Assembly (NCBI GenBank): GCA_045627385.1
Contig: JAZQNO010000025.1
Location: forward strand, 5,147-69,146
Direction of reading: 5' to 3'
DNA from: Bacteroidales bacterium
GTDB lineage: Bacteria > Bacteroidota > Bacteroidia > Bacteroidales > UBA1402
Length of the DNA stretch: 64,000 bases
The position numbers and the translations under genes were made by a program. The notes below the pieces were generated by a model. That model ran no database searches and was not told where the DNA came from. It saw only the letters and a program-made list of their open reading frames with translations. Positions 918 to 36,915 of this stretch are shown here, piece by piece (the first letter of the stretch is position 1; the number at the start of each line of letters is the position of its first letter).

Positions 918-928
918 ATAAACAAGCT

Positions 929-3998: not shown

Positions 3999-4006
3999 TA
4001 TCTTTG
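3999..4006 (+). promoter_or_regulatory. Bacteroidetes -7 promoter element (TATCTTTG) upstream of PL11 gene
   Basis: Matches TAnnTTTG about 30 nt upstream of ATG 4037. No well-spaced -33 TTTG. Confidence 0.5.
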
Positions 4007-4036
4007 AAACTCAACCGCAAAAAGCCATTCTTTCTT

Positions 4037-9504: not shown

Positions 9505-9513
9505 GCGACTGCC

Positions 9514-23021: not shown

Positions 23022-23120
23022 TGACGCCCTGAGACTGCCTTCCCGGAAAAAAGATTAGATTCCGAAGGAAAATTGCAACATTTCCGCTTGAACGAAACCG
23101 ATTCTCAGCAGTCAAAGAAG

Positions 23121-23128
23121 TATATTTG
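23121..23128 (+). promoter_or_regulatory. -7 promoter element (TATATTTG) upstream of GH142-like gene
   Basis: TAnnTTTG match in the divergent intergenic region. -33 element not evident. Confidence 0.5.
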
Positions 23129-23186
23129 CGGAGCGCTCGGAAACGAACGCGTCACGACAACGGACAACAAACCAAAACAATTCGAT

Positions 23187-24824
23187 ATGAGGAAAATCAT
23201 GCTTATGGTGTGCATCGGCCTGATGGCCTTTGCCAACCCGGTATCCGTGCAGGCCGGCAAAAAAGCCCGCCGCGCATCGGACAAACAGACATCCCTGTCA
23301 CAGGCTCAAGTGCTGAAAGCCGACGACTACAGGCACTATGCCGAGTATTTCAACCGCATGGAGCCGGAAAACATCGTCCAGGCCATTCCCAATGCCGATG
23401 CCTGGCAGTGGATGGAAAAGAACATTCCGCTTTTCGCCTGCCCGCAGGACAACTTCGAGGAAATCTGGTATTTCCGCTGGTGGTCCTACCGCAAGGGCAT
23501 CCGCGAGACACCGCTGGGATACGCTTTCAACGAATTTCTCGTACAGCGCAGCTATTCGGACAAATACAACATCATCGCCTGCGCCATCGGCCATCAGCTG
23601 ATGGAAGGCCGCTGGCTGCACACCAGCCAATACATGGACGATTATCTCCACATCTGGTATCGCGGCAACGACGGCAAGCCGATGTCGAAACTCGGCAAGT
23701 TCAGTTCCTGGACCCCCTACGCCGTCTGGGAACGCTATCTGGTCAACCAGGACGCCGATTGGATGCTGGACATGCTGCCCGACCTGGATGCCGATTATGA
23801 AGTGTGGATGCAGTATCATCCCTGGCCCGAAGGGCTTTATGGCCAGCGTGACGTGTCGGACGGTATGGAAGAGTCCATCAGTGGAGGCCGCCGCGTCTAC
23901 AATGCCCGTCCGACCATCAACAGCTATATGTACGGAAACGCCGTCGTTCTGGCTCGGATGTACGATCTGCAGGCTGCCCGTCTGCAGGCTGCCGGACAGG
24001 ATGCCGCCAAGGCTTTGGAACGCAAGGCCCTTTACGAAGAACGTGCCGCCAAGATGCGCCAGTCTGTTCAGGAATACCTTTGGAACGACGAACAGCAGTT
24101 CTTTGAAACCCGTCAGGAGCAGGACCGTCAGCTGGCCAATGTGCGTGAAGCCATCGGCTTCATTCCCTGGTATTTCAATCTGCCAGAGCAGGGCGCAGGC
24201 AAGCCGGACTATCAGGCCGCCTGGAAACAGGTGACCGACCCCAAGGGCTTTCTCGCTCCTTACGGACTCACTACAGCTGAACGCCGTCATCCGGCCTTCC
24301 GCACGCACGGAGTGGGCAGCTGTGAATGGGACGGCGCCGTTTGGCCTTTTGCCACTTCGCAGACGATGACGGCCATGGCCAACGTGCTCAACGACTATTC
24401 TCAGAACTATGTCAACGACAGTGTTTATTTCAAGCTGATGGAACTCTATGTGGAGTCGCAGTACAAGCGCGGCCGTCCCTATGTGGGCGAGTATCTCGAC
24501 GAGACCACGGGCTACTGGCTCAAGGGCGATCAGGAACGCAGCTACTACTACAACCATTCCACTTTCGCCGACCTGATGATCACCGGTCTGATGGGTCTGC
24601 GTCCCAGAACCGACAACGTGCTGGAAGTGCATCCTCTGATTCCTGAAAAGAACTGGGACTGGTTCTGTCTCGACAATATCCTGTACCACGGCCGTATCAT
24701 CACCATCCTCTGGGACAAGGACGGAAGCCGCTTCGGACGTGGCGCCGGTTTCCAGCTGCTGGTCGACGGCAAGAAACTCGTCTCTTCGCCCCGTCTTGAA
24801 CCGCTTCAGGCCGAAATGAAATGA
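23187..24824 (+). CDS. GH142-like beta-L-arabinofuranosidase, resembling the C-terminal module of BT1020
   Basis: Own signal peptide. DDYRHYAEYFNRMEPENIVQAIPN, NIPLFACPQDNFEEIWYFRWW, DGMEESISG, RPTINSYMYGNA, CEWDGAVWPFAT, YNHSTFAD. Recalled similarity. Confidence 0.75.
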   Translation: MRKIMLMVCIGLMAFANPVSVQAGKKARRASDKQTSLSQAQVLKADDYRHYAEYFNRMEPENIVQAIPNADAWQWMEKNIPLFACPQDNFEEIWYFRWWSYRKGIRETPLGYAFNEFLVQRSYSDKYNIIACAIGHQLMEGRWLHTSQYMDDYLHIWYRGNDGKPMSKLGKFSSWTPYAVWERYLVNQDADWMLDMLPDLDADYEVWMQYHPWPEGLYGQRDVSDGMEESISGGRRVYNARPTINSYMYGNAVVLARMYDLQAARLQAAGQDAAKALERKALYEERAAKMRQSVQEYLWNDEQQFFETRQEQDRQLANVREAIGFIPWYFNLPEQGAGKPDYQAAWKQVTDPKGFLAPYGLTTAERRHPAFRTHGVGSCEWDGAVWPFATSQTMTAMANVLNDYSQNYVNDSVYFKLMELYVESQYKRGRPYVGEYLDETTGYWLKGDQERSYYYNHSTFADLMITGLMGLRPRTDNVLEVHPLIPEKNWDWFCLDNILYHGRIITILWDKDGSRFGRGAGFQLLVDGKKLVSSPRLEPLQAEMK

Positions 24825-24849
24825 CAATCAACCATCAAACCATTATAAG

Positions 24850-26526
24850 ATGAAAATCATCAAAACTTTTTGTCTGACGATCTGTCTGATTTCTGCTGTT
24901 ACAATCAGTGCGCAGTATCCGAGAATTCCTAATGAACTTCAGGATTCGGCCAATGTTGCAGCCTTCCAAAAGAGTCAAGCCTACCAGCCGCTTCGCGCCG
25001 AAGCTATGCAAACCGTTCAGCAGGAGGCAGAACAGGGACGCCCCTACATTCCATGGGCATCCCGCCCCGAAGATCTTCCTCAGGCATCCATTCCCGCATT
25101 TCCCGGTGCTGAAGGTGCTGGCGCCTACACATTTGGAGGACGTGGTGGCAAGGTCTTGGTAGTGACCAATCTCAACGATAGCGGTGAAGGCTCTCTGCGC
25201 TGGGCCTGCGAGCAGGGCGGTGCCCGAATCGTGGTATTCAACGTAGCAGGTATCATCCGTCTGGAAGCGCCTATCGAGATTTCGGCTCCCTATATCACCA
25301 TAGCCGGCCAGTCGGCTCCTGGTGACGGTGTTTGCATTGCCGGTGCCACCGTCAGCATCAACACGCACGATGTCGTTCTCCGTCATCTGCGTTTCCGTCG
25401 TGGAGCTATGGAAGTGACCAGTCGTGACGACGCCGTGGGCGGCAATCCGGTTGGCAACATCATGATTGACCATTGTTCAGCATCGTGGGGACTCGACGAG
25501 AATATCTCCTTCTATCGCCACATGTATCGCGGACGCAAGCTGCCGACCGTGAACGTGACCATTCAGAATACCATTTCAAGCGAGGCCTTGGATACTTACA
25601 ATCATGCCTTTGGAAGCACCATTGGCGGTGAAAACTGTACTTTCATCCGCAATCTCTGGGCTTGCAATATCTCCCGCAATCCATCTGTCGGAATGGGCGG
25701 CGATTTCAATCTCATCAACTGCGTTCTCTTCAACTGGTGGAACCGAACTATGGACGGCGGTGACAATAGCAGTCGCTGGAACGTGCTGGGCAACTACTAC
25801 AAACCCGGCCCGATGACACCTGCTGATGACCCCGTTTCCTATCGCATTTCCAAGCCTGAAACCGGTAGAGACCAGTCACATAAGGAAGTATACGGACAGA
25901 TTTTCGCCAAAGGCAATGTGGTGGAAGGAAACAAGGCCGTCTCCCGCGACAACTGGAACGGAGGCATCCAGCCAGCCGGTGTCGCCGGTCCCGATTCTCT
26001 GCTCAAGGCCATCCGCTCCGACAAGCCTTTCCCGATGCAGTTTCCGATGAAGAAAGTGATGAAGGCCAAAAAAGCCTACAAGTTCGTCGTGAAGAACGCT
26101 GGTGCCACATGGCCCCGCCGCGATGCCGTAGACAGCCGCGTCATTGAATTCGTCCAAACCGGAAATCCCTATTATGTGGAAGGCGAATACGAACAGACGC
26201 CCTACGTGAAGCGTCGTCTTGCCCCGGATTCCTACAAGCAGGGCATCATCTACCATCCCAATCAGGTGGGTGGCTATCCCGAATATAAGGGTGTGGCCTA
26301 CAAGGATAGCGATATGGATGGTATGCCCGACGCCTGGGAGATTAAGTACGGACTGAATCCGAATGATCCGTCCGATGCTGTGAAAGACTGCAATGGCGAC
26401 GGCTACACGAACATTGAGAAATTCATCAACGGTATGAATCCGAAGAAGAAAATCGACTGGACAAATCCCAAAAACAATCACGATACCTTGGCCAAATGCA
26501 AGGCTCCTTTGTACGGAACCGAGTGA
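24850..26526 (+). CDS. Pectate lyase, PL1 family (BT1023-like)
   Basis: PAFPGAEGAG..TFGGRGG, VTNLNDSGEGSLR, TIAGQSAPGDG, IDHCSASWGLDE, RNP, C-terminal DSDMDGMPDAWE..GYTNIE. Confidence 0.9.
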   Translation: MKIIKTFCLTICLISAVTISAQYPRIPNELQDSANVAAFQKSQAYQPLRAEAMQTVQQEAEQGRPYIPWASRPEDLPQASIPAFPGAEGAGAYTFGGRGGKVLVVTNLNDSGEGSLRWACEQGGARIVVFNVAGIIRLEAPIEISAPYITIAGQSAPGDGVCIAGATVSINTHDVVLRHLRFRRGAMEVTSRDDAVGGNPVGNIMIDHCSASWGLDENISFYRHMYRGRKLPTVNVTIQNTISSEALDTYNHAFGSTIGGENCTFIRNLWACNISRNPSVGMGGDFNLINCVLFNWWNRTMDGGDNSSRWNVLGNYYKPGPMTPADDPVSYRISKPETGRDQSHKEVYGQIFAKGNVVEGNKAVSRDNWNGGIQPAGVAGPDSLLKAIRSDKPFPMQFPMKKVMKAKKAYKFVVKNAGATWPRRDAVDSRVIEFVQTGNPYYVEGEYEQTPYVKRRLAPDSYKQGIIYHPNQVGGYPEYKGVAYKDSDMDGMPDAWEIKYGLNPNDPSDAVKDCNGDGYTNIEKFINGMNPKKKIDWTNPKNNHDTLAKCKAPLYGTE

Positions 26527-26604
26527 GTTTTGTCCAAGTTGGCAATTTTTGTCAGTAAATAATCAAAAAAGGTATTTCCCCTGTCGAGGATAGGACGTAC
26601 TTTT

Positions 26605-26643
26605 GTTTTCCGATGCCGTCAAGGCACCGGAAAACTTTTTTTT
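26605..26643 (+). terminator. Intrinsic terminator after the GH142-PL1 genes
   Basis: GTTTTCCGATGCC-GTCAA-GGCACCGGAAAAC hairpin followed by a T-run. Confidence 0.7.
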
Positions 26644-26695
26644 CTGTCCTTTCGCAGGGTTCGCGTGAAGGCGTTTATTAAAAAACACTTTGGAA

Positions 26696-27592
26696 ATGAA
26701 GAAAAAATTTCAAGGAGTAGTGGTCCCTATGGCCACACCGCTGAAGGCGGATCTGACGATTGATACCGATGCGGTTGTCCGCATCATGCGGCGATTTGCC
26801 GAAAACAGCATTTCGCCTCTCGTGTTGGGCACGACTGGCGAGTCGGCTTCGGTGGGAGAGACTGAAAGCCTCCGTTTTGTCCGTGCCGCTGTCGCAGCCA
26901 GAGCTGCCGGCCAGCAAGTCTATGCCGGACTGGTGGGCAACGATGTCCGTCAGCTGGTCCGTCTGGGCAACCTCTATGCCGAAGCCGGCGCCGATGCCGT
27001 CGTTTCGACTTTGCCATCGTATTACATCCTCACTCCGGAGCAGATGAAAGCTTTCTATCTGACCCTGGCCGAGGAGGTGAAGGCACCCATTTTCATGTAC
27101 AACATCAAAGCGACCACCCAGATGTCCATTCCTCTCGAAGTGGCCGAAGAACTGAGCCGTCATCCCAATATCGCCGGTCTGAAGGATTCGGAACGCGATG
27201 AGGAAAAGATGAAGGCCAGCATCGCCGCTTTCAAGGACCGTGCCGATTTCTCCTTCTTCTGCGGATGGGGAGCCCAAGGCGGCAACAGCCTGAAACTCGG
27301 AGCGGACGGCATTGTGCCCAGCACGGGCAACATCGTGCCTGAACTTTACGGAAAACTCTACAAGGCTTTCGTCGCCGGCGATTTCGCCGCCGTCGACCGT
27401 TGCCAGGCCCTGACCGACCAGGTCGGCGCCGTCTATCAGAAGGGCCGCACGCTGGGCCAGTCGCTGGCTGCTCTCAAGGCTATCATGCAGAGCCAAGGTC
27501 TGTGCGGAACCACCATGATGCCGCCGCTCACGGCTTACGATGAGAAAGAAAACCAACAGATTGTCAACCAATTCAATTTATTGTCATTATGA
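26696..27592 (+). CDS. DHDPS-family pyruvate aldolase 2 (candidate Dha aldolase)
   Basis: LGTTGE, PSYY, YNIKATT, GLKDSE (Schiff-base Lys), GADGIVPSTGN. Confidence 0.85.
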   Translation: MKKKFQGVVVPMATPLKADLTIDTDAVVRIMRRFAENSISPLVLGTTGESASVGETESLRFVRAAVAARAAGQQVYAGLVGNDVRQLVRLGNLYAEAGADAVVSTLPSYYILTPEQMKAFYLTLAEEVKAPIFMYNIKATTQMSIPLEVAEELSRHPNIAGLKDSERDEEKMKASIAAFKDRADFSFFCGWGAQGGNSLKLGADGIVPSTGNIVPELYGKLYKAFVAGDFAAVDRCQALTDQVGAVYQKGRTLGQSLAALKAIMQSQGLCGTTMMPPLTAYDEKENQQIVNQFNLLSL

Positions 27593-29157
27593 CTGAAGCT
27601 ACCATCCATTGGATAGACATCGCCATCATACTGGTGACTTTGGTGTTCACCATCGGCGTAGGCATTTATGTCGCACATCGCAACAAAAACAGCGAAACTT
27701 ATTTCGTCGGCAGCAAGAAGGCTCCTTCATGGGCCATCGGTCTGTCCATCTTCGCCACACTCATCAGTTCGGTCACCTTCCTTTCCTATCCGGCTGCCGC
27801 CTTCAAAGGCAACTGGATTCTGCTGGTGCAGGGCCTGATGGTGCCTGTGGTGCTCGTTTTCCTCATCTGGGCCATCGTGCCGCTGTTCCGCAAGATGATC
27901 CGTCTGAGCACATACGAGTATTTCGAAAGACGTTTCGGCTTGCCGGCCCGCATCTATTCCTCTCTGGCCTTCCTGCTGACCCATTTTTCGAAAATGGGTA
28001 CGGTGTTGTATCTCATTTCATTGGCTTTGAGCAGCATGATGGGCGTTGATGCCTTCTGGATTATCATCGTGTTGGGTCTGGTCATCGTGGCCATCACCTA
28101 TGTCGGCGGTATGGAAGGCGTTATCTGGATGGATGTGGTCCAGGGTCTTCTGCTGATTTTAGGCGGCATTCTCTGTGTGGTGGTGCTTCTGGCACGTCCC
28201 GAGCAGGGAGCCATGCAGGTATTCCACGATGCCATCGCTGCGAAGAAAATCGGTTTCGGCCCCTACAACTTCAGTTTTGCTGAACTTACCTTCTGGGTAA
28301 TGGTCATCAACGGCGCTTTCTACGCATTGCAGAAATATGGCACCGACCAAACCATCGTCCAGCGTTATCTCACAGCCCGTAATGACCGTGAAGCCAAGAA
28401 GGCCGCTTATATCGGCGTCGGCCTGAGTGTACCCATCTGGGCTATGTTCATGCTGATCGGTTCGCTGCTGTTTATCTATTATCAGTCGGGTACGGCCGTG
28501 CTGCCTGAAGGAATGAAGGCCGAATCGGTCTTCCCGTACTTCATGGTGAACGAACTTCCCATTGGGGTGGCCGGTCTGGTCATTGCGGCCCTGCTGGCTG
28601 CGGCCATCTCCAGCCTGGATGCCGATATGAACTGTCTGTCGGCCATCATTGTGGAAGACTATTACGCCCGTTTCAAGAAAGACTGCACCGATCGCCAGCG
28701 CCTCAACATGGGCCGCGCCATGGTGGCCGTTTCGGGCTTGCTGACTGTTGGCGTCGCGGCTCTCTACTACGCATGGGACGGAGAGGGCGTGCTCGGTGTC
28801 ATCTTCGAACTCTACGCCATATTTTCGGCCGGTATCGTGGGTATCTTTCTGCTGGGTCTTTTCAGCCGCCGTGCCAACAAACAGGGCCTCTACATCGGCC
28901 TGCTGGTCTGCGTGCTTTTCACGGCCTATGCTGTGTTGACAACGACCAAAATCGAAGTGGAAGGCGGCAAGCAGCTGATTCTCGACTTGGGAAAATGGAA
29001 CTTCCCGCACCACAAATACATGTTGGGCGTCTACAGCCATCTGATCGTCCTGGTGGTCGGTTATGTGGCCAGTCTGTTCTTCCCCAAGCCCAGCCTCGAA
29101 AAAGGACTTACCATTTATGATTATAAAAAGTCAGATTTGACTGATTCAAACAATTGA
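27589..29157 (+). CDS. Sodium:solute symporter 2 (SiaT-like)
   Basis: SIFATLISSVTF, YEYFERRFG, GGMEGVIWMDVVQG, DQTIVQRY, AAAISSLDADMN. ATGA overlap with the aldolase gene. Confidence 0.9.
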   Translation: MTEATIHWIDIAIILVTLVFTIGVGIYVAHRNKNSETYFVGSKKAPSWAIGLSIFATLISSVTFLSYPAAAFKGNWILLVQGLMVPVVLVFLIWAIVPLFRKMIRLSTYEYFERRFGLPARIYSSLAFLLTHFSKMGTVLYLISLALSSMMGVDAFWIIIVLGLVIVAITYVGGMEGVIWMDVVQGLLLILGGILCVVVLLARPEQGAMQVFHDAIAAKKIGFGPYNFSFAELTFWVMVINGAFYALQKYGTDQTIVQRYLTARNDREAKKAAYIGVGLSVPIWAMFMLIGSLLFIYYQSGTAVLPEGMKAESVFPYFMVNELPIGVAGLVIAALLAAAISSLDADMNCLSAIIVEDYYARFKKDCTDRQRLNMGRAMVAVSGLLTVGVAALYYAWDGEGVLGVIFELYAIFSAGIVGIFLLGLFSRRANKQGLYIGLLVCVLFTAYAVLTTTKIEVEGGKQLILDLGKWNFPHHKYMLGVYSHLIVLVVGYVASLFFPKPSLEKGLTIYDYKKSDLTDSNN

Positions 29158-29163
29158 TTAGTA

Positions 29164-30312
29164 ATGAGACAAGTGCAACTGATGACCCCAAGAAAGGTCA
29201 TCGTGGGGACAGGCTGTTCCCTAAACTGGATTGAAGATTCGCTCAGCGAAGGTTACACAAAGGTGATTCTGCTTTCGACCCGTCCCATTTGGGACATGTT
29301 GGACGGAATGCTGCTCGAAGCTGCCGCCAAGGGCTTGAAGGTGGTGAAGATCGATTATGATCTGTCTGGCGAACCTACTTCTGATTATTTCGAAAAGTTA
29401 CGTAAAACCGCATCCGCCGCTTCCGCCGATGCCATAGTTGGCATCGGCGGAGGCTCGGTCCTCGATATCGCCAAGTTGCTGGCCGCACTGGCCGACCGGA
29501 AGACGCCGGTGAGCAAGTGTTTCGGCAAAAATATGCTGGAGCCCAGACGCATAGGTTTGTACTGTCTGCCCACAACTTCGGGAACCGGCAGTGAAGTGTC
29601 GCCCAACGCCATTCTGCTCGATTCGGCCGACGGCGAGAAAAAAGGCGTCATCAGTCCCTACCTTTTGCCCGACTGCACTATCATCGACCCTGAACTGACG
29701 CTGAGCCTGCCTCCCAAACAGACCGCTGAGACGGGCATGGATGCCTTGTGCCACTGTGTCGAAGCCTATATGAACAAAAATGCGCATACGGTGGTCGATG
29801 CCTATGCGATGAAAGGTGTGCAGCTGGTCTACAAAAACCTTTTGAAAGCCGTTCTTGACGGCCGAAACCGTCCGGCCCGCGAAGGTATGGCCATCGCCTC
29901 CATGATGGGCGGCCTCTGCCTGGGACCGGTCAACACCTGCGGTGTCCACGCCCTTTCCTACGGCCTTGCCGGCAAGTATCATCTGTCTCACGGTCTGGCC
30001 AACGCGCTGCTGTTGCCCGAAGTGATGAGTTTCAACATCCCCGGCTGTCAGGCCCGCATTTCCGACCTGGGCAAGGTGCTTGGCGTACAGATGACACGCG
30101 ACACCGGACGCAATGCCAAAGCCGTGGTGGAGGTCATCCGCACGCTTTCGGCCAAATGCGGCATTCCCCAGCATCTTTCCGAACTGGGTGTCAAGGCGGA
30201 AGACATTCCCGAAATGGCCGACATGGCGATGAACGTCACCCGTCTGCTCGAAAACAATCCGCGCGAAATCACGCGTGAAGACGCCATTCAGATATACACT
30301 AACATATTGTAA
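29164..30312 (+). CDS. Iron-containing alcohol dehydrogenase family oxidoreductase
   Basis: GGGSVLDIAK, PTTSGTGSEV, metal ligands in DALCH..E, GVHAL, SHG, and NNPR. Confidence 0.9.
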   Translation: MRQVQLMTPRKVIVGTGCSLNWIEDSLSEGYTKVILLSTRPIWDMLDGMLLEAAAKGLKVVKIDYDLSGEPTSDYFEKLRKTASAASADAIVGIGGGSVLDIAKLLAALADRKTPVSKCFGKNMLEPRRIGLYCLPTTSGTGSEVSPNAILLDSADGEKKGVISPYLLPDCTIIDPELTLSLPPKQTAETGMDALCHCVEAYMNKNAHTVVDAYAMKGVQLVYKNLLKAVLDGRNRPAREGMAIASMMGGLCLGPVNTCGVHALSYGLAGKYHLSHGLANALLLPEVMSFNIPGCQARISDLGKVLGVQMTRDTGRNAKAVVEVIRTLSAKCGIPQHLSELGVKAEDIPEMADMAMNVTRLLENNPREITREDAIQIYTNIL

Positions 30313-30315
30313 TTC

Positions 30316-31341
30316 ATGGAAAAACCTATTGTCAGCATCAGTATGGGCGATCCGGCCGGCATCGGTCCCGAGATTACCGTCAAAGCTCTTCAGAACGAAT
30401 CTGTCTATGAGCGTTGCCGCCCGATGGTGGTGGGTGACGCCAAAGTAATGAGCGATGCGGTCGCTTTTTTGAATACTCATCTGCAGATCCATCCTATCCA
30501 CGACGTTTCGGAGGCCCTGTTCCAATTCGGCACCATTGATGTCTATGACCTTGACAATGTGGACATGCCTTGTCTGCAGTATGGCGTGGTCAGCCCGATG
30601 TGCGGTCATGCGGCTTTTGAAGCGGTCCGTACCAATATAGAACTGGCCATGGCCCATAAGGTCGACGCCACGGTGACGGCTCCTATCAACAAGGAAGCCA
30701 TTCACGCGGCCGGTCACGACTTCTCGGGCCATACCGAAATATATGCCCATTACACTCAGACGAAGAACTACGCCATGCTGTTGGCAGACGATTCCCTGCG
30801 TGTCATTCACGTGAGCACACACGTGTCTCTTCGCGAGGCTTGTGACCGCGCCAAGAAGGCCCGTGTGCTGGATGTGATCGGTCTGCTTCACGACGCCTGC
30901 CGTCGTTTCGGCATCGAGAAACCTCATCTGGCCGTGGCCGGTCTAAACCCGCATTGCGGTGAAAACGGCCTCTTCGGTCAGGAAGAAATCGAGGAGATCA
31001 TTCCTGCCGTTCAGGAAGCCCGCACCCGTGGCTACGATGTGGAAGGCCCCGTGCCCCCGGATACCGTTTTCGCCAAAGCCGTTCAGGGAAAGTTCGACGG
31101 AGTGGTGGCCATGTATCACGACCAAGGGCACATCCCGTTCAAACTGGTTGGATTCCGCTGGAACAACGAAACTCAGAAGATGGACAGCGTCAAGGGTGTG
31201 AACATCACGCTCGGACTGCCCATCATCCGCACTTCCGTCGATCATGGCACGGCCTTTGAAATCGCCGGTCAGGGTATCGCCTGTGAAGATGCCATGCTCA
31301 TTTCCATCGACTATGCCCTGAAAATGGCGCAAAACAGCTGA
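30316..31341 (+). CDS. pdxA2: PdxA-family dehydrogenase (PdxA2, D-threonate/erythronate-4-phosphate dehydrogenase type)
   Basis: MGDPAGIGPEI, GHTE, STHVSL, GLNPHCGE, MYHDQGHIPFK, RTSVDHGTAF. Adjacent to a DUF1537 kinase. Confidence 0.85.
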   Translation: MEKPIVSISMGDPAGIGPEITVKALQNESVYERCRPMVVGDAKVMSDAVAFLNTHLQIHPIHDVSEALFQFGTIDVYDLDNVDMPCLQYGVVSPMCGHAAFEAVRTNIELAMAHKVDATVTAPINKEAIHAAGHDFSGHTEIYAHYTQTKNYAMLLADDSLRVIHVSTHVSLREACDRAKKARVLDVIGLLHDACRRFGIEKPHLAVAGLNPHCGENGLFGQEEIEEIIPAVQEARTRGYDVEGPVPPDTVFAKAVQGKFDGVVAMYHDQGHIPFKLVGFRWNNETQKMDSVKGVNITLGLPIIRTSVDHGTAFEIAGQGIACEDAMLISIDYALKMAQNS

Positions 31342-31342
31342 T

Positions 31343-32491
31343 ATGATCGCACTTGTCGCAGATGATTTCACCGGCGCGGCCGAAGTGGCCGGCATTTGCA
31401 TGCGTCGTGGCGTGAGCGTGAGTTTCCTGACGGGCATTCCCGATCCGGAAATCATATCCGCCCTTACGACCGATGTGGCGGTGATTGCCGAAGACACCCG
31501 CTCTTTTTCCAAAGAGGGTGCTGAGAAAATCAGCCGCTTGCTGGCCGAAAACCTGAAAGCAGCCGGCGTTACCCAGATTGTCAAGAAAATCGATTCCGTG
31601 ATGCGCGGCTGGGTGCTGCCCGAAATGAATGCCATCGCATCGGTGATGGGCTATGAAAGCCTTCTCATCCAGCCGGCCAATACCGAAACGGGCCGCAGTG
31701 TCCGCAACGGCATGTATTTCATTGGAGAACAACTGCTGTCGGAAACGGCTTTCGCACAGGATCCCGACTTCCCTGCACCTACCTCGTCGGTGGAGAAACT
31801 ATTGGAACTGAGAGGCGGTGTCAGTGTGGTTCCCTATCTGGTGCCCGATGCCGAGAACGACGAGGACCTGCTGCACAGTGTCCGTCTGAGCAACGGCAAT
31901 GTACTGGCAGGAGGCAGTGCCGCCTTCTGGCGTGTCTATCTTGAAAATCAGATTCGTCTGGGTCGTGTGAAATCCAACCCGGTGGAGCGGGACGTCATCG
32001 GCCGCTTTCTGCTCCGCGATTGCCTGATGGTCTGCGGAAGCGCCCATCAGAACAGCATGGATTTTTCTTCCCGTCTGGCCAACAGCGGTTTCCCGGTCCT
32101 GGCCATGCCTGAGACGATGTGCCTGGAGGAAAAACCCTCCGAAGAAGAATACGAACGTTGGGTCGGCCTCTGCGAATCGGTCTGGAAAAAGGAAAGACGC
32201 CTTCTGGTGCGTCTGGCTTCCCGTCCCGGATTCCCGCAGGCGGCCGAAACTTTGCTGTTCCGCTTTTCCGAAGCGGTCGGCATGCTGCTTGACCGCATCG
32301 ATCCCTCCCAACTGCTGGTCGAGGGTGGCGCGACCGCCTACAGTCTGCTGTTCCAGCGTCAGGGGTGGACTTCGTTCATTCCCGAAAAGGAATGGCTGCC
32401 CGGTGTCGTCCAGCTGAAATTGGCCACTCCTCCCGGCATCAGCATCACGCTCAAGCCCGGCAGTTATGCCTGGCCCGCTTTCGAATATTGA
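31343..32491 (+). CDS. Four-carbon acid sugar kinase (DUF1537; DtnK/DenK type)
   Basis: ADDFTGA, DTRS, KKIDSVMRG, EGGATA, KPGSY. Confidence 0.85.
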   Translation: MIALVADDFTGAAEVAGICMRRGVSVSFLTGIPDPEIISALTTDVAVIAEDTRSFSKEGAEKISRLLAENLKAAGVTQIVKKIDSVMRGWVLPEMNAIASVMGYESLLIQPANTETGRSVRNGMYFIGEQLLSETAFAQDPDFPAPTSSVEKLLELRGGVSVVPYLVPDAENDEDLLHSVRLSNGNVLAGGSAAFWRVYLENQIRLGRVKSNPVERDVIGRFLLRDCLMVCGSAHQNSMDFSSRLANSGFPVLAMPETMCLEEKPSEEEYERWVGLCESVWKKERRLLVRLASRPGFPQAAETLLFRFSEAVGMLLDRIDPSQLLVEGGATAYSLLFQRQGWTSFIPEKEWLPGVVQLKLATPPGISITLKPGSYAWPAFEY

Positions 32492-32505
32492 AAAAACCGA
32501 CAGCA

Positions 32506-34083
32506 ATGAAACACTTTTCATCCATCGCTCTTTTTTGTCTGGCCATGCTTTCAAGTCTGAACTTGAGAGCGAAAACCGTCAACATTCTCGAAGCCGGCGG
32601 TTCCAACGACGGAAAAAAGCTCAATACCGCAGTCATCGAAAAAACCGTCAGCCGCCTGGCAGAGCAGGGTGGGGGAACACTTTATTTCCCTGCCGGCACC
32701 TATCTGACCGGTCCGATTACCCTTCGGAGCAATATCACGCTCGATATCGAATCGGGGGCCGTGCTGTCGTTCACGGATGACTTCGACGCGTACATGCCCT
32801 TTGTGGAGATGCGTTACGAAGGCGTGGTGATGAAAAGTTTCCATCCGCTCATCTACGCCTATGAGGCCGAAAACATCACCATCAAGGGTCGTGGGACGCT
32901 CGAAGGCAACGGAAGCGCCTGGTGGACGGAAAACTGGCGTATCGAAGGAGCCCTCAAAGACGGGGAGAAAATCGAGAAAACCAAGTATCAGAAAGCTTTC
33001 CTTGAAGCCAATCCCGATCTCGTTCTCGAGCCTCAAAGCGATTGGAAAGGTACGCTTGCCCGCGAATTCTTCCGCCCGCCTTTCATTCAGCTCTACCGCT
33101 GCAAGAACATCCTCATCGAAGGCCTCCATATTCAGAATTCTCCTTTCTGGACCGTCAATCCGGAATTCTGCGACAACCTCAACATCACCGGACTGACCAT
33201 CGTCAACCCGCCCTCGCCCAACACCGACGGCATCAATCCCTCGTCCTGCAGCAACGTGCATATTTCCAACTGTCACATCAGCGTGGGAGACGACTGCATC
33301 ACCATCAAGAGCGGACGCGACCTGCAGGGCCGCCAATACGGCGTTCCCTGTCAGAACGTCACCATCACCAACTGCACCATGCTTTCCGGTCACGGCGGTG
33401 TCGTCATCGGCAGCGAGATGTCGGGCGACGTGCGCAAGGTGAGCATCAGCAACTGTGTCTTCGACGGCACCGACCGAGGTATCCGCATCAAGAGCAGCCG
33501 CGGCCGCGGGGGAATCGTCGAGGAGATCCGCGTGGACAACATCGTGATGAAGAATATCCGCAAGGAAGCCATCATTCTGACACTTTTCTACGGGCGCTCT
33601 TTTCCGGAACCGGTTTCCGACCGTACGCCTGTCTTCCGCAACATCCACATTTCCAATATGACCGGCACGCAGATCAATTCGGTCGGCGAAATCCACGGCA
33701 TCGAAGAAATGCCCGTTTCCAACGTCAGCATCTGCAATGTCAATATGGAAGCCCAAAGCGGCTTGCGTGTCATCGATGCACGCGACATCACTCTGCGCGA
33801 CTTTACCGTCGACACACAGAGGGGCCCGGCCGTCTCGGCCAGCAAGGCCAGCGACCTTTATTTCTCCAATGTCCGTACGAACAGCCCGACAGCCGATGCG
33901 CCCGTCATTCTGCTGAATCAGGTCAAACGCACCTGGGTGTCCGACTGTTTTCCCAAGCCTGGCAGTTCATGTCTGGTCGAGGTGAGAGGAACCGATTCGG
34001 AAGACATTGTCCTGATGAACAATTACTGCAAAGGTCTGGATGCCGTCAAGGCGGAAGAGCCCATTACCATCGTTCAAAAATAA
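32506..34083 (+). CDS. GH28 (poly)galacturonase
   Basis: Signal peptide. NTDG, GDD, GHGG..IGSE, RIKS catalytic motifs. Start at ATG 32506. Confidence 0.92.
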   Translation: MKHFSSIALFCLAMLSSLNLRAKTVNILEAGGSNDGKKLNTAVIEKTVSRLAEQGGGTLYFPAGTYLTGPITLRSNITLDIESGAVLSFTDDFDAYMPFVEMRYEGVVMKSFHPLIYAYEAENITIKGRGTLEGNGSAWWTENWRIEGALKDGEKIEKTKYQKAFLEANPDLVLEPQSDWKGTLAREFFRPPFIQLYRCKNILIEGLHIQNSPFWTVNPEFCDNLNITGLTIVNPPSPNTDGINPSSCSNVHISNCHISVGDDCITIKSGRDLQGRQYGVPCQNVTITNCTMLSGHGGVVIGSEMSGDVRKVSISNCVFDGTDRGIRIKSSRGRGGIVEEIRVDNIVMKNIRKEAIILTLFYGRSFPEPVSDRTPVFRNIHISNMTGTQINSVGEIHGIEEMPVSNVSICNVNMEAQSGLRVIDARDITLRDFTVDTQRGPAVSASKASDLYFSNVRTNSPTADAPVILLNQVKRTWVSDCFPKPGSSCLVEVRGTDSEDIVLMNNYCKGLDAVKAEEPITIVQK

Positions 34084-34098
34084 ATTTCCTTACCGATT

Positions 34099-35460
34099 AT
34101 GGCACAAAAGAAAAGAGATGAATTCAAGAGCAAGTTCGGCGTTCTGCTGGCAATGGTCGGATCCGCGGTCGGCCTGGGCAATCTGTGGCGTTTCCCGTAT
34201 CTGATGGGCACCAATGGGGGCTCGGCCTTCATCATTGTCTATCTGGGCTTTGTCATCGTTCTCTGTCTGCCTGTGCTTTTTTCCGAATTCATTGTCGGCA
34301 AAGCGAGCCACTCCAATGCCTGCGGGGCCTTCAAGACGCTGGCTCCTGGTTCGAAATGGTATCTCTACGGCTTGCTGTCGGTGTGCTGCTGCTTCATGAT
34401 CCTGTCGTTCTACAACGTGGTCGGCGGCTGGACGCTGAATTATCTTATCCGCTCGTTCACGGTCGATTTTTCCACTTTGGACAACGAAGTGCTGGTCGAC
34501 ACGTTCCAGTCGGCTTCCGGTTCAGTGGGCTGGTGGCTTCCGCTTCTCTGCTTCTGGCTGTTCATGCTGTTCAATGCCGGTATCCTCACGGGCGGCATCC
34601 AGGCCGGCATCGAGAAGTTCACCAAAATCATGACTCCGGCTCTGTTTCTGCTGGTAGCCATCATCGCCAGCTATTCGTTGAGTCTGAACGGCTCCATGGA
34701 AGGCTTGCGTTTCATGTTCGCTCCCGATTTTTCCAAACTGAGCCTGAAGACGCTCCAGTCGGCGATGGGACAGGCCTTCCTTTCGCTGAGCATCGGTTGC
34801 GGCTGCATTCTCACCTACGCTTCTTATGTGAAAGACGATCACCGCATCATGAAGACGTCGCTCTCTACGGCTTTGGCAGATACCTTTTTTGCCCTGCTGG
34901 CCGGCTGCGCCATCATGCCTGCCGTGTTCAGTTTCGGCATATCGCCCAGTCAGGGCCCCGGTCTGGTGTTCGTGACGCTGCCCGGCATTTTCGCACAGCT
35001 TCCCGTCGGCCGTCTCATTGCCATTCTGTTCTTCTTCGTACTGTTTCTGGCGGCTCTCACCTCGTCCATCTCAATGTTCGAAGTGGCCGTGGCCTATGTG
35101 GGCGAGGAATACAAGCTGAAACGCAAGTCGTCAGTACTCGTCTGTATGGGCATTACGGTTATTTTCGGCTCGCTTTGTTCGTTGTCGATGGGGCCTTTGG
35201 CCGATTTCCACATTTTTGGAAAGACCGTGTTTGACTTTTTCGATTCAACCACATCTAACATACTGATGCCTCTCGGCGGACTCATCATTGTCCTGTTTGT
35301 GGGATGGCGTATGAAAAAATCTCAGGTTATGGCCGAATTGACCAATGGCGGCAGCCTGAAAATGAAGCCTTGGCTGCTGAATGCGGTCTGGTTCCTGATC
35401 CGTTTCGTCGCCCCGCTGATTTTGATTGTCTTGCTGACGAGTACCATCTTTATCAAATGA
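34099..35460 (+). CDS. Sodium-dependent transporter, NSS/SNF family
   Basis: GSAVGLGNLWRFPY, GGSAF, QAFLSLSIG, GPGLVFVTLP, AALTSSIS. Confidence 0.9.
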   Translation: MAQKKRDEFKSKFGVLLAMVGSAVGLGNLWRFPYLMGTNGGSAFIIVYLGFVIVLCLPVLFSEFIVGKASHSNACGAFKTLAPGSKWYLYGLLSVCCCFMILSFYNVVGGWTLNYLIRSFTVDFSTLDNEVLVDTFQSASGSVGWWLPLLCFWLFMLFNAGILTGGIQAGIEKFTKIMTPALFLLVAIIASYSLSLNGSMEGLRFMFAPDFSKLSLKTLQSAMGQAFLSLSIGCGCILTYASYVKDDHRIMKTSLSTALADTFFALLAGCAIMPAVFSFGISPSQGPGLVFVTLPGIFAQLPVGRLIAILFFFVLFLAALTSSISMFEVAVAYVGEEYKLKRKSSVLVCMGITVIFGSLCSLSMGPLADFHIFGKTVFDFFDSTTSNILMPLGGLIIVLFVGWRMKKSQVMAELTNGGSLKMKPWLLNAVWFLIRFVAPLILIVLLTSTIFIK

Positions 35461-35475
35461 TTAAACTTTTGCCCG

Positions 35476-36915
35476 ATGAAGAATAAACTTATTGCAACAG
35501 TCGTATTGCTGGTCTTCGTGCTGATGCCGGCTCTCGCACAGTTTTCACAGCTGTCGCAGGTGACTTTCGACCGTCCGACGGCCGACACCCAGTTCGCCCG
35601 TCCGCTCAAGGACGTGCTCGACGACATCGAAGCCCGTTTCCAAATCAAGCTCAACCGTCCGAAGGAACTCGACCAGACCCAGATGGTGCCCTATGCCGAT
35701 TACCGCATCGCTCCCTGGAGTGTGGAGGAAAGTCTGAACAATGTGCTGGCCATGTTCGATTTCAAGGCCGTTCTCAACGGAGCTCCCGGCCGTTACAAGA
35801 TCAGTCAGTACGAATATATGCGCCATACGCCCGAATACGGCGAGAAATTCATAGCCTATCTCAATACGCTGTACGACGACAAGGAAAGTTTTGAAGCCCG
35901 TCGGGCTGAGCTGCAGGGACAGCTGCGCCATCTGGCCGGTCTCGACAGCCTGCCCGAGCGTCCGAATTCGAAGCCTTATCTCACACCGAAACGCGTCTAT
36001 GGCGACTACTATGTGCAGAACATCGGTCTGGAAATCCTGCCGGGTGTCTATTGCACCGGTTCCATCTACCATCCGACCAAGTTCAAGAAGGGCTCTTGCC
36101 CGGTCATTCTCAATCCCAACGGCCATTTCGGCGACGGACGTTACCGCAAGGACGAACAGTTGCGTTGTGCCATGCAGGCCCGTATGGGCTGCATCGCCGT
36201 CAGCTACGACCTTTTCGCCTGGGATGAGCAACTGCTGCAGTTCGAATCGCGCTCTCACCGCACGGCTATGGCTCATACCATACAGAACCTCAACGCCATC
36301 CGCCTGCTTGACTATCTTCTCACACTAAAGGAAGCCGACAAGACTCGTGTCGGCATCACCGGCGGCAGCGGCGGCGGCAGCGCCACGATGTTCCTCACAG
36401 CCATTGACGACCGCATTACGCTGAGCATGCCGGTTGTGATGACCACGTCCTATTTCCTGGGCGGATGTCCCTGCGAAAGCGGCAATCCGGTGCATCTGGC
36501 CGGCGGCGGCACCAACAATTCGGAACTGACGGCTCTCTGCGCTCCGCGTCCTCTGCTGGTGGTCAGCGATGGGGGAGACTGGACTGCGACCGTTCCTCAG
36601 ATCACCTTCCCGTATCTGCAGCGCGTCTATGGTTTCTACGGCGCAGAGGACAAATTGGAGAATGCCCATTTCCCGCGCGAGGGCCACGATTATGGATGGT
36701 CCAAGCGTGAAGCCACCTACAAGTTCCTCGAAAAGCATTGGAAATTGGATACTTCCAAGGTGAAGGACTCCGAAGGCAAGTTCGACGAGTCGGCTTGCAC
36801 CGTCGAAGAGTACAAACTCCTCAAAGTCTGGGGAGAAAACGGTGAAAATCTGCCCGCCAATGCAGTCAAGGGCATCGAAAACCTCTACCGGATGTTCAAG
36901 GAATACGGCAAGTGA
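35476..36915 (+). CDS. Alpha/beta-hydrolase carbohydrate esterase, BT1017/CE19-like pectin methylesterase
   Basis: Signal peptide. NPNGHF, nucleophile elbow TGGSGGG, GGCPCESG, SDGGDWT, EGHDYG. RG-II-type neighbourhood. Confidence 0.7.
   Translation: MKNKLIATVVLLVFVLMPALAQFSQLSQVTFDRPTADTQFARPLKDVLDDIEARFQIKLNRPKELDQTQMVPYADYRIAPWSVEESLNNVLAMFDFKAVLNGAPGRYKISQYEYMRHTPEYGEKFIAYLNTLYDDKESFEARRAELQGQLRHLAGLDSLPERPNSKPYLTPKRVYGDYYVQNIGLEILPGVYCTGSIYHPTKFKKGSCPVILNPNGHFGDGRYRKDEQLRCAMQARMGCIAVSYDLFAWDEQLLQFESRSHRTAMAHTIQNLNAIRLLDYLLTLKEADKTRVGITGGSGGGSATMFLTAIDDRITLSMPVVMTTSYFLGGCPCESGNPVHLAGGGTNNSELTALCAPRPLLVVSDGGDWTATVPQITFPYLQRVYGFYGAEDKLENAHFPREGHDYGWSKREATYKFLEKHWKLDTSKVKDSEGKFDESACTVEEYKLLKVWGENGENLPANAVKGIENLYRMFKEYGK

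Follow-up and report, generated by a model that had tools for sequence, protein, structure and literature searches.

The region analysed here is a 64-kb window, i.e. the whole stretch of DNA under analysis, from an uncultured Bacteroidales bacterium. It includes a module of five co-directional open reading frames (ORFs) on the + strand, all with ATG starts, at positions 26696–32491. The first two, ALD (26696–27592) and SSS2 (27589–29157), share a 4-bp ATGA overlap, and spacers of 6, 3 and 1 bp precede, in order, the genes for an iron-type alcohol dehydrogenase (Fe-ADH; 29164–30312), a PdxA2-like dehydrogenase (30316–31341) and a divergent acid-sugar kinase of the DUF1537 family, KIN (31343–32491). 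The tight coupling pointed out in the initial annotation was thus borne out. A gene for a GH28 galacturonidase-like protein (32506–34083, + strand; PF00295, 153 bits) likely starts at 32506, 14 bp past the kinase stop codon, hence it is possibly co-transcribed and the transcription unit may extend beyond the five genes. The KIN-GH28 adjacency recurs in genomes G011 and G010 and in six metagenome loci.

The surrounding cluster has genes for several further enzymes of glycan breakdown, those with coordinates given here all lying on the + strand. A GH143-like β-propeller protein with a sialidase-like CBM (16221–18155; PF24067, 361 bits) is encoded 8.5 kb upstream of the module and matches residues 24–611 of BT1020 (PDB 5mqr; E 1.4e-216). 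As a candidate Dha hydrolase, it would set the substrate free. The GH142-like protein encoded 1.9 kb upstream (23073–24824) matches residues 614–1095 of 5mqr (E 1.4e-208) and is a candidate β-L-arabinofuranosidase that would uncap Dha in side chain D of RG-II. Directly upstream of the module is a gene for a PelZ-like pectate lyase (24850–26526; NF041900, 144.8 bits, under the cut-off), which has homologs close to the module in several further loci. Downstream are genes for a GH140 apiosidase with a DUF3826 domain (36949–39003; PF13204, 373 bits; PF12875, 182 bits) and for a fusion of a BNR_2 sialidase-like domain with a xylose isomerase-like TIM barrel (39039–41072; PF13088, 278 bits; PF01261, 96 bits), which is a possible Kdo hydrolase; in G666 and a number of metagenome loci, each half is encoded by a gene of its own and the two genes flank the module. 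The cluster further includes genes for a PL11 lyase and SusC/SusD. According to the portion of PMC13501991 available, the sole characterised activity of GH143 is hydrolysis of Dha. Given that GH140, GH28 and the BNR_2 protein are also among the neighbours, the sugar cannot be named from adjacency alone.

ALD belongs to the DHDPS/NAL superfamily of class I pyruvate-dependent aldolases (PF00701, 136 bits) and passed none of the NCBIfam equivalog cut-offs (dapA 136.8 against 206, nanA 69.9 against 382). The GTTGE motif, the YN tyrosine and the GLKDSE lysine are matched in an alignment with E. coli DapA and NanA, in which Thr stands in place of the DapA arginine in 17/17 module aldolases. The ALD orthologs form a clade of their own (support 98/98), separate from DapA, NanA and DHDPS1, the product of the other DHDPS gene in the window, and a true DapA is encoded elsewhere in the same genome. 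A DHDPS1 ortholog was missing from four (G160, G028, G520 and G602) of the ten module genomes tested, which suggests that ALD alone supplies the aldolase of the module.

SSS2 is a sodium:solute symporter (PF00474, 143 bits) that scored above the TIGR00813 cut-off (214.8 against 184). The solved structure closest to it is 5nv9 (E 1.3e-82, 282 bits; PDB title 'putative sodium:solute symporter'), which we take to be Proteus SiaT. Fe-ADH is a group III alcohol dehydrogenase (PF25137, 184.5 bits; PF00465, 115.4 bits), and its top NCBIfam models, ErcA, lactaldehyde reductase and 4-hydroxybutyrate dehydrogenase (242, 228 and 223 bits, respectively), were all under the cut-off.

The PdxA2-like protein (PF04166, 363 bits) matched the solved structures 2hi1 ('dehydrogenase 2', 308 bits) and 6e85 ('D-threonate 4-phosphate dehydrogenase', 300 bits), with a lower score of 207 bits for E. 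coli PdxA (1ps6). By sequence comparison, it is nearer to solved PdxA2 and D-threonate-4-phosphate dehydrogenase than to E. coli PdxA. It fell under the NCBIfam cut-off for D-threonate-4-phosphate dehydrogenase (350 against 583) and passed that of the generic pdxA model TIGR00557 (354 against 290). Contig C13 carries a second PdxA gene, in housekeeping surroundings. In KIN, the N-domain scored 109.6 bits (PF07005) and the C-domain 27.1, just short of the cut-off of 28.3 (PF17042). A profile of the 17 kinase orthologs aligned with HI1011 (1yzy) over positions 1–372 of 376 (E 9e-33). KIN scored 85 against the cut-off of 450 of the curated D-threonate kinase model NF047819, which matched 17/17 orthologs (best E 5e-41), as did the 3-oxo-tetronate kinase model (best E 2e-25), in both cases under the cut-off throughout. 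The module kinase is distant from every characterised DUF1537 member. For none of the five module proteins was the NCBIfam cut-off for the specific activity proposed below passed. At the family level, Pfam, NCBIfam and solved-structure matches agree with the initial annotation, which had listed a pyruvate aldolase that lacks the DapA arginine, a SiaT-like symporter, an Fe-ADH, PdxA2 and a DUF1537 kinase in a cluster encoding GH143- and GH142-like enzymes.

The five module genes are conserved together. They are clustered in 15 of the 16 other kinase-positive Bacteroidota genomes, the cluster in the 16th (G102) being interrupted by a contig end, and they occur in two orders, ALD-SSS-FeADH-PdxA-KIN and FeADH-ALD-PdxA-KIN-SSS. 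Fe-ADH lies within the module in 15/16 of these genomes. Among 44 metagenome loci of at least 9 kb each, KIN was present in 43, ALD and PdxA2 in 40 each, SSS2 in 37 and FeADH in 32, and every other neighbour gene in seven or fewer. Twelve of these 44 long loci yielded no Fe-ADH gene, and the module is seemingly intact without it in at least L083, L090, L098, L100, L102, L110 and L118.

Co-occurrence with GH143 was surveyed in 401 genomes of the order, with a strong PF24067 match taken as GH143-positive. The kinase was found in 13 genomes, spanning nine genera and seven families: 13 of the 24 GH143-positive genomes and none of the 377 without a strong GH143 match, a contrast for which Fisher values overstate independence because the 13 genomes are related. 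An ALD ortholog was absent from all 11 GH143-positive, kinase-negative genomes (best identity 24–29%), indicating that the module is present or absent as a whole. GH140 was found in 62/401 genomes, and the module in 13/22 genomes positive for both GH140 and GH143 as against 0/40 with GH140 and without GH143. Across all module genomes, GH143 is present in 16/17, and in 9/17 it lies on the same contig as the kinase, 7–26 kb away. The link to GH143 and the conservation of the five genes over Bacteroidota, both raised in the initial annotation, were thus found. However, the module is missing from 11/24 GH143-positive Bacteroidales and from the B. thetaiotaomicron control, in which no PF07005 (DUF1537) gene was found; hence, it is not required for RG-II use. 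The 99% complete genome G602 carries the module without any PF24067 match. In G520, which belongs to another class, the module was present and GH140 and GH142 were not found; one co-directional cluster there has the order sulfatase-[module]-...-BNR_2-GH143-like and provides a non-RG-II context for the module. According to the accessible text of PMC10762512, Dha is also among the main sugars in the scales of prasinophytes and in the theca of Tetraselmis.

From these data, we infer five activities that would make up a route from Dha to central metabolites. The GH142-like and the nearby GH143-like enzymes would free Dha in the periplasm, and the SiaT-like symporter would bring it into the cell. 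The NAL-like class I aldolase is predicted to split Dha between C-3 and C-4 to give pyruvate and D-threuronate, a C4 aldehyde-acid, whose aldehyde Fe-ADH would reduce with NAD(P)H to give D-threonate. The DUF1537 kinase would then form 4-phospho-D-threonate, and the PdxA2-like enzyme would convert this to DHAP and CO2 by oxidative decarboxylation. The net reaction would be Dha + ATP → pyruvate + DHAP + CO2, redox-neutral overall, with one NAD(P)H consumed and one NADH produced. This order of steps is expected because Dha has no phosphorylatable primary hydroxyl group before cleavage and reduction. The stereochemistry, derived by hand, is consistent with the retro-aldol cleavage and reduction to D-threonate suggested initially: the D-lyxo configuration yields a threo C4 fragment, and, as the threo tetraric skeleton is C2-symmetric, reduction of D-threuronate yields D-threonate. 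By our own reasoning, Dha is the only one of the RG-II sugars considered that gives a C4 aldehyde-acid on cleavage by a pyruvate aldolase. Comparative genomics and chemical logic support, short of proof, the reading that the module imports Dha and breaks it down to pyruvate, DHAP and CO2, and we give this reading a probability of about 60%. If true, it would provide a complete route, from import through central metabolites, for a rare plant and algal acid sugar. No published catabolic route for Dha was found in the literature searched, in line with the initial annotation, which knew of none, and neither threuronate nor threuronic occurred in the searchable papers.

The substrate could instead be another ulosonic or ulosaric acid, perhaps one yet to be described, that is freed by sialidase-like enzymes and likewise gives a C4 or comparable acid; examples are a stereoisomer of Dha or a modified Dha yielding D-erythronate rather than D-threonate. 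The remoteness of the kinase from all characterised DUF1537 members would fit such a substrate, as would G602, where the module adjoins an FGE-sulfatase/BNR_2 protein and a sulfatase without GH143. The part of PMC13753588 available also reports PdxA2/DUF1537 pairs for D-erythronate besides D-threonate. The near-constant presence of GH143 in module genomes, with Dha hydrolysis as its only characterised activity in the available portion of PMC13501991, makes another acid unlikely. Nor are we aware of a further natural 2-keto-3-deoxy-aldaric sugar. Slightly less likely is that two unrelated functions share one operon, namely a keto-deoxy-acid importer, aldolase and aldehyde reductase, and a general salvage pair for D-threonate or D-erythronate from other sources, e.g. 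plant ascorbate breakdown. PdxA and KIN are always adjacent while ALD, SSS and FeADH shift between the two gene orders, and in L095 and L107, on contigs of 11–12.6 kb, FeADH-PdxA2-KIN was found and neither ALD nor SSS2 was detected. Yet the five genes are kept together despite a rearrangement and in different classes of the phylum, the GH143 genomes without the module lack both ALD and the kinase, and a second conserved transporter was not found.

Another RG-II sugar is a distinctly poorer candidate. Aceric acid would undergo reduction, phosphorylation and PdxA-type decarboxylation, and apiose or apionate would be processed by an ApnO/OiaK-like pair. ApnO (PdxA family) and OiaK (DUF1537) do function in apionate catabolism, as the available text of PMC13753588 has it, and GH140 often neighbours the module (11/80 metagenome loci). 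Nevertheless, neither route has a role for a pyruvate-type class I aldolase, the 40 GH140-positive genomes without GH143 in the order sample lack the module, and G520 and G602 have it without GH140 or GH142. Kdo, which the aldolase would cleave to D-arabinose and pyruvate with the remaining enzymes acting further downstream, is marginally less probable again. A BNR_2 protein beside a GH78 rhamnosidase flanks the module in several loci, a pairing that resembles BT1013, a GH78-Kdo hydrolase fusion in the excerpt of PMC13501991. D-Arabinose is, however, not an acid sugar and would leave PdxA2 and DUF1537 without a substrate; BNR orthologs occur in 8/11 module-negative GH143 genomes as well as in 12/12 module-positive ones, and DHDPS1 and DHDPS-x are alternative candidates for a Kdo aldolase. 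A role in vitamin B6 metabolism, with the DUF1537 protein as 4-hydroxythreonine kinase acting with PdxA, is highly improbable. Some DUF1537 members can phosphorylate 4-hydroxythreonine (PMC7954711, as far as the accessible text goes) and the generic pdxA cut-off was passed, but a separate PdxA already exists in a housekeeping context, the pair lies inside a glycan-utilisation cluster, and the kinase is confined to GH143-positive genomes in the order sample.

Several known systems resemble parts of the proposed Dha route. D-Threonate is reportedly catabolised by DtnK, a DUF1537 kinase, and PdxA2, as described by Zhang et al. in 2016. The adjacent kinase and PdxA2-type dehydrogenase and the expected conversion of D-threonate via 4-phospho-D-threonate to DHAP and CO2 are alike, to the extent covered by the sources available. 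However, both module proteins are under the equivalog cut-offs, the kinase, at 382 aa, is shorter and strongly divergent, and the module adds a symporter, an aldolase and a reductase, so that D-threonate would be formed intracellularly from a C7 sugar instead of being imported. With SiaT and NanA, the module shares a 5nv9-like SSS symporter that would import a 3-deoxy-2-ulosonic acid, a DHDPS/NAL Schiff-base aldolase giving pyruvate and an aldehyde, and release of the substrate by a sialidase-fold glycosidase. ALD scored under the NanA equivalog cut-off. Unlike NanA, most module aldolases have G-W-(G/A)-A in place of the G-Y-D-E stretch, as well as a conserved K-D-S-E-R motif of their own after the Schiff-base lysine, and the proposed substrate differs from that of the sialic acid system in being a dicarboxylic C7 sugar.

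The E. coli glucarate/galactarate route, with GarL aldolase, GarR tartronate-semialdehyde reductase and GarK glycerate kinase, follows the same logic one carbon shorter: a 2-keto-3-deoxy-aldaric acid is cleaved to pyruvate and an aldehyde-acid, and reduction of the latter gives an aldonic acid that is then phosphorylated. Its families differ (class II HpcH aldolase, β-hydroxyacid dehydrogenase and glycerate kinase), and, as its product is C3, a decarboxylation step is unneeded. The window encodes close homologs of the GH143 and GH142 halves of BT1020 of B. thetaiotaomicron, which are fused in that protein and are two genes about 5 kb apart here; that model RG-II degrader, being without a DUF1537 gene, is without the downstream module. 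In the D-apionate pathway, PdxA and DUF1537 families likewise act as a pair in breaking down an RG-II sugar, as far as the available text shows. In contrast to the module, that route depends on RuBisCO-like or other decarboxylases and lacks both a pyruvate aldolase and an Fe-ADH, and the distribution of the module tracks GH143, not GH140.

The five genes at 26696-32491 of the window (C25:5147-69146 in a 2.13-Mb, 98%-complete assembly; window G+C ~55%) all lie on the + strand and start with ATG. In order, they encode a DHDPS-family aldolase (ALD, 26696-27592), a sodium:solute symporter (SSS2, 27589-29157), an iron-type alcohol dehydrogenase (Fe-ADH, 29164-30312), a PdxA-family dehydrogenase (PdxA2-like, 30316-31341) and a DUF1537 protein (KIN, 31343-32491). 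The identities given to all five products in the initial annotation were borne out by Pfam and NCBIfam matches, as was their tight coupling, with an ATGA overlap between ALD and SSS2 followed by gaps of 6, 3 and 1 bp. A scan of 24800-36000 for sigma-70 promoters and terminators returned nothing usable for a Bacteroidota operon.

The GH143-like (16221-18155) and GH142-like (23073-24824) genes that had been recognised nearby matched separately the two halves of BT1020, the GH143-GH142 fusion protein of B. thetaiotaomicron (structure 5mqr; residues 24-611, E 1.4e-216, and residues 614-1095, E 1.4e-208, respectively). Also found around the module were genes for a PelZ-like lyase, GH28, a glucuronoyl-esterase-like protein, a GH140 apiosidase, a PL11 lyase, a BNR_2 sialidase-like/TIM barrel fusion, a SusC/SusD pair and several DUF6298 proteins. 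One cluster thus unites the side chain D families GH143 and GH142 with GH140, GH28 and SusC/SusD, in line with an RG-II utilisation locus. A 1509-aa PL11 rhamnogalacturonan lyase (4004-8533) carries a passenger-associated-transport repeat (PATR), and a sodium:neurotransmitter-symporter-family (SNF) transporter gene, unusual for a PUL, is located at 34099-35460 between the GH28 and esterase-like genes.

Paralogs are present elsewhere in the genome: a second PdxA in a housekeeping setting (contig C13, beside DUF4837 and a sigma-54 activator), a DHDPS-family gene on contig C20 that is likely the true DapA, having the strongest PF00701 score (284.5 bits), and a second, canonical DUF1537. Hence, the PdxA and DHDPS genes of the module are not the biosynthetic copies. 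The canonical DUF1537 gene (C10:248-2548, locus L053), in which both domains are strong, lies beside a BKACE (PF05853) gene at a contig end.

The kinase probe found matches in 13 of 401 genomes of the order sample (E <= 1e-20) and in 5 of 401 genomes of the phylum sample (E <= 1e-15); as one of these five is the window's own genome, the phylum sample adds only four. When the window proteins were mapped by tblastn onto a region of ~40 kb surrounding each foreign kinase match (16 in all), all five genes were clustered in 15, the exception being genome G102, where the contig terminates within the symporter gene and Fe-ADH was not detected. Gene order takes two forms: ALD-SSS-FeADH-PdxA-KIN (the window plus seven further genomes) and FeADH-ALD-PdxA-KIN-SSS (the other nine, among them all four from outside the order). 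A metagenome scan with the 17-sequence kinase alignment gave 80 loci, the best 80 of 535 confirmed stretches. Among the 44 of these that are at least 9 kb long, blastp clustering placed KIN in 43, ALD and PdxA2 in 40 each, SSS2 in 37 and Fe-ADH in 32, and the next commonest neighbour occurred in 7. The gene set is real, and it is kept as a unit in the foreign genomes and in most of the long metagenome loci.

The GH143 family (PF24067) was detected in 26 of the 401 order genomes, strongly in 24; weak matches were seen in G030 (~28 bits) and G257 (~21 bits). The kinase was present in 13 of the 24 genomes with strong GH143 and in 0 of the 377 others (one-sided Fisher 3e-18, a value that overstates independence because the 13 genomes fall in only 9 genera and 7 families), so that the co-occurrence with GH143 anticipated in the initial annotation was seen in every kinase genome of the order sample. 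The 11 GH143-positive genomes without the kinase also lack an ALD ortholog (best identity 24-29%); hence the module is all-or-nothing. In G000 (the genome of the window), G011, G010, G194, G231, G259, G363, G520 and G666, a single contig has the kinase and GH143 genes at a distance of 7-26 kb from each other; in G483 the distance on the shared contig is ~645 kb, and in the other genomes the two are on different contigs. GH140 (PF13204) occurs in 62 of the 401 genomes, and the module in 13 of 22 that have both GH140 and GH143 and in 0 of 40 with GH140 but not GH143. The link of the module is therefore to GH143-type enzymes specifically. It is lacking in about half of the GH143 genomes and in the B. 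thetaiotaomicron control, which has no PF07005, and is thus optional. Its absence there is compatible with the secretion of rare RG-II sugars, e.g. apiose and Kdo, described for Flavobacterium 'as with Bacteroides' in a 2026 preprint (10.64898/2026.03.13.711244).

ALD matched PF00701 with 136.3 bits (cut-off 22.1) over profile positions 1-284 of 289, and is a member of the superfamily. On alignment with E. coli DapA and NanA, the GTTGE motif, the Tyr of YN and the Lys of GLKDSE are retained in all 17 module aldolases; we take GxTGE to be the carboxylate-binding motif, and the aligned Tyr and Lys to be the catalytic and Schiff-base residues, respectively. The Arg of DapA that binds aspartate semialdehyde (R138 in E. 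coli) is missing, as had been noted, and Thr occupies its position in 17 of 17. Scores fell below the DapA equivalog TIGR00674 (136.8 vs 206.15) and the NanA equivalogs NF003164 (81 vs 281) and TIGR00683 (69.9 vs 382). In a 37-row tree comprising all 17 genome aldolases, 12 of 40 metagenome aldolases picked by hand for spread, and outgroups, the module aldolases formed one clade (98/98 support), separate from E. coli DapA, the genome's own DapA, NanA, DHDPS1 (the other DHDPS-family aldolase of the window) and a fourth DHDPS type. ALD is proposed as a candidate Dha aldolase, its specificity residues being read off the alignment; the Arg conserved in K-D-S-E-R and the Arg/Lys conserved in the Y-Q-x-x-R loop are candidate contacts for the distal carboxylate. 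A homolog of ALD with 61% identity is listed for Microbacter margulisiae.

SSS2 passes TIGR00813 (214.8 vs 184). Among solved structures, 5nv9 ranks first (E 1.3e-82, against 1e-45 for the runner-up), and we take it to be the Proteus SiaT sialic-acid transporter. The family match and the closest structure both place SSS2 among the SiaT-like SSS symporters, as first annotated. Fe-ADH passes both Pfam domains (PF00465, 115.4 vs 31.3; PF25137, 184.5 vs 27) and no NCBIfam equivalog, the top one being ErcA (242 vs 550). Lactaldehyde reductase (228 bits) and 4-hydroxybutyrate dehydrogenase (223 bits) are near models that the scores do not discriminate; the substrate reduced by the latter enzyme is a C4 omega-aldehyde acid. 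Seven metagenome loci have no Fe-ADH in a module that appears intact in other respects; thus another reductase, or none, must serve those organisms.

The PdxA2-like protein scores below the D-threonate-4-P dehydrogenase equivalog NF002891 (349.7 vs 583) and passes the generic pdxA model TIGR00557 (354 vs 290). Against structures it matched 2hi1 ('dehydrogenase 2') with 308 bits, 6e85 ('D-threonate 4-phosphate dehydrogenase') with 300 and E. coli PdxA (1ps6) with 207. By these scores it resembles characterised PdxA2 more than biosynthetic PdxA, and a role on 4-phospho-D-threonate is predicted. The single KIN sequence matched PF07005 with 109.6 bits and PF17042 with 27.1 bits, under the 28.3 cut-off; searched against genome contigs, it found one true relative, on a 3-kb contig of a Bacteroidales MAG. 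A profile of the 17 kinase orthologs aligned over positions 1-372 of 376 with residues 1-398 of 413 of 1yzy (E 9e-33), and at profile level the clade is a full-length two-domain DUF1537 family. KIN is below the equivalogs for DtnK (NF047819, 85.1 vs 450) and OtnK (NF043035, 75.9 vs 350). All 17 orthologs match both models, with best E values of 5e-41 and 2e-25, respectively; the clade thus leans towards the D-threonate kinase model rather than that for 3-oxo-tetronate kinase, while being far under both cut-offs. No module protein reaches the NCBIfam cut-off for its proposed specific activity, the sole pass in that comparison being to the generic TIGR00557. A PfkB-family sugar kinase (cluster c11) recurs near KIN in five metagenome loci, including L095, L107 and L111; in L095 and L107, it is immediately downstream of the module kinase on the opposite strand.

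Dha has the structure HOOC-CO-CH2-(CHOH)3-COOH. A pyruvate-type class I aldolase would cut it between C-3 and C-4 to give pyruvate and 2,3-dihydroxy-4-oxobutanoate. As the D-lyxo configuration makes C-5 and C-6 threo, the C4 fragment would be D-threuronate, and because the threo tetraric skeleton is C2-symmetric, reduction of the aldehyde would yield D-threonate. A DUF1537-type kinase would act only after cleavage and reduction, since Dha is without a primary hydroxyl, and a PdxA-type enzyme would then oxidise C-3 of the phosphorylated product and decarboxylate it to DHAP. Each of the five genes would have one role, in a sequence that is redox-neutral overall. On chemical reasoning, Dha alone among the RG-II sugars considered gives a C4 aldehyde-acid. 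The conversion of Dha via D-threonate to DHAP, with the enzyme activities predicted, is the sole reading constructed that employs all five genes, and we assign it a probability of about 0.6.

The remainder is shared by three alternatives. The module may act on a related but different ulosaric acid, for which its presence in genome G602 without GH143 speaks, the association with GH143 in all 13 kinase genomes of the order sample speaking against it; or it may be a composite operon, against which stands the retention of the same five genes in both gene orders. Were the substrate another RG-II sugar, Kdo would leave the kinase and dehydrogenase without a substrate, as its aldolase product is D-arabinose, and the routes for aceric acid and apionate have no use for a pyruvate aldolase. 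Two further schemes were rejected for chemical reasons: a KdgD-type dehydratase/decarboxylase step on Dha, since the eliminating centre and the distal carboxylate are not in conjugation, and a 5-keto-4-deoxyglucarate substrate, whose C3 product gives the PdxA2 step no role.

GH143 is present in three of the four carriers outside the order, G602 being the one without it. G520 and G602 are members of another class; both lack GH140 and GH142, and their module loci have ~35% G+C. In G520, a co-directional cluster comprises genes for LacI, a T9SS protein, a TonB receptor, a sulfatase, the five module proteins, a phosphoesterase, two LamG proteins, BNR_2, a GH143-like protein and a sulfatase. G602, a relative of G520, shows this arrangement too, with an FGE-sulfatase/BNR_2 fusion and GH143 missing. 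These sulfatase-rich, T9SS-linked surroundings of the module are loci L045 and L046 (G520) and L049 and L050 (G602). Dha, together with 5-O-methyl-Kdo, is given in PMC10762512 as the characteristic sugar of prasinophyte scales and the Tetraselmis theca; therefore, a non-pectin source of Dha exists for loci of this type, which may be aimed at green-algal scales or theca that contain Dha.

RG-II, said to be the most complex glycan of plants, is eaten regularly in the human diet, and the glycosidases that dismantle it are known. None of the papers found describes what becomes of its rare acid sugars in the cytoplasm. Among the matches listed for the full-text literature, as far as its searchable part extends, there was no catabolic route for Dha (heptulosaric acid), in keeping with the initial annotation, which named no characterised fate of released Dha; most subscription journals and supplements fall outside this scope, so that a route may be published. 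Within the same searchable text, the words threuronate and threuronic were absent, matches to tartrate semialdehyde were unrelated, 'four-carbon acid sugar kinase' combined with rhamnogalacturonan gave nothing relevant, and no catabolic route was identified for a Kdo aldolase; nor did any paper in the full-text literature searched join rhamnogalacturonan, threonate and aldolase. A 2026 review (PMC13501991) names GH143 as the Dha hydrolase and does not use the word threonate.

The odds are slightly in favour of the wider claim that the module constitutes the first Dha catabolic pathway, a redox-neutral route to pyruvate, DHAP and CO2 via D-threuronate and D-threonate, maintained as a unit across Bacteroidota of the gut, rumen, soil and probably marine habitats, alongside GH143-like enzymes, both in RG-II loci and in loci rich in sulfatases, the latter possibly directed at green-algal scales rich in Dha. 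The module combines known enzyme families in a new way and is not a new kind of system. If true, the Dha route would fill one named gap in RG-II metabolism and give a function to a large clade annotated only as 'dihydrodipicolinate synthase family' and to a divergent clade of DUF1537 kinases. It would also provide a biological source of D-threonate, i.e. a natural substrate supply for the DtnK/PdxA2 route, and a genomic marker of Dha consumers in gut, rumen, soil and algal-bloom communities. The patchy distribution, with about half of the GH143-bearing genomes and B. thetaiotaomicron lacking the module, would then mean that many RG-II degraders leave Dha to cross-feeders. The pathway is open to direct test, as it comprises five soluble or membrane proteins and a substrate releasable by BT1020-type enzymes.

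The window further includes DHDPS1 (8584-9504; PF00701, 201 bits) and a second SSS symporter (9514-11016), flanked by DUF6298 proteins. This pair (8584-11016) is a lineage separate from the module pair. An ortholog of DHDPS1 (51-72% identity) is present in all 5 of the module-negative GH143 genomes tested and in 6 of the 10 module-positive genomes tested; the four without one are G160, G028, G520 and G602, and the module is thus independent of DHDPS1. In genome G181, 7-12 kb separate the ortholog from GH140 and a BNR fusion gene. It may be speculated that the DHDPS1 pair is a candidate aldolase and importer for the other RG-II ulosonic acid, Kdo.

The gene at 39039-41072 encodes a BNR_2 propeller fused to a xylose-isomerase-like TIM barrel (PF01261). 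Its matches to solved structures were marginal (E ~3e-4), and its context makes it a possible candidate for a Kdo hydrolase. A BNR ortholog was found in 12 of 12 GH143 genomes with the module and in 8 of 11 without it, which does not separate the groups, and a link of this neighbour to Kdo is neither backed nor excluded. The BNR and TIM halves are separate genes flanking the module in G666 and in metagenome loci L077, L087, L098, L102 and L134. In L077, L098, L102 and L134, the four of these loci in which individual genes were mapped, a GH78 rhamnosidase gene precedes the BNR gene, an order that recalls BT1013, a fusion of GH78 and a Kdo hydrolase. In several Bacteroidales genomes, the BNR domain is within ORFs of 1260-1560 aa. 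Between the BNR gene and the module, L077 has a very divergent DHDPS-family gene (L077:5954-6937; 108 bits to PF00701; a branch of length 7 in the tree), and L098, L102 and L134 have one at the same position.

DUF6298 (PF19815) is represented at 3-917, 902-3925, 11587-14604 and 14626-16230 by three large paralogs and a 534-aa ORF resembling the N-terminal part, and a fourth copy begins just upstream of the window. For the protein at 902-3925, no solved relative by sequence and no NCBIfam match was found. The family also occurs in the B. thetaiotaomicron control, and homologs adjoin GH140/GH143 in genomes G231, G259, G363 and G011 and in locus L136; from this gene context, DUF6298 looks like an RG-II-associated family.
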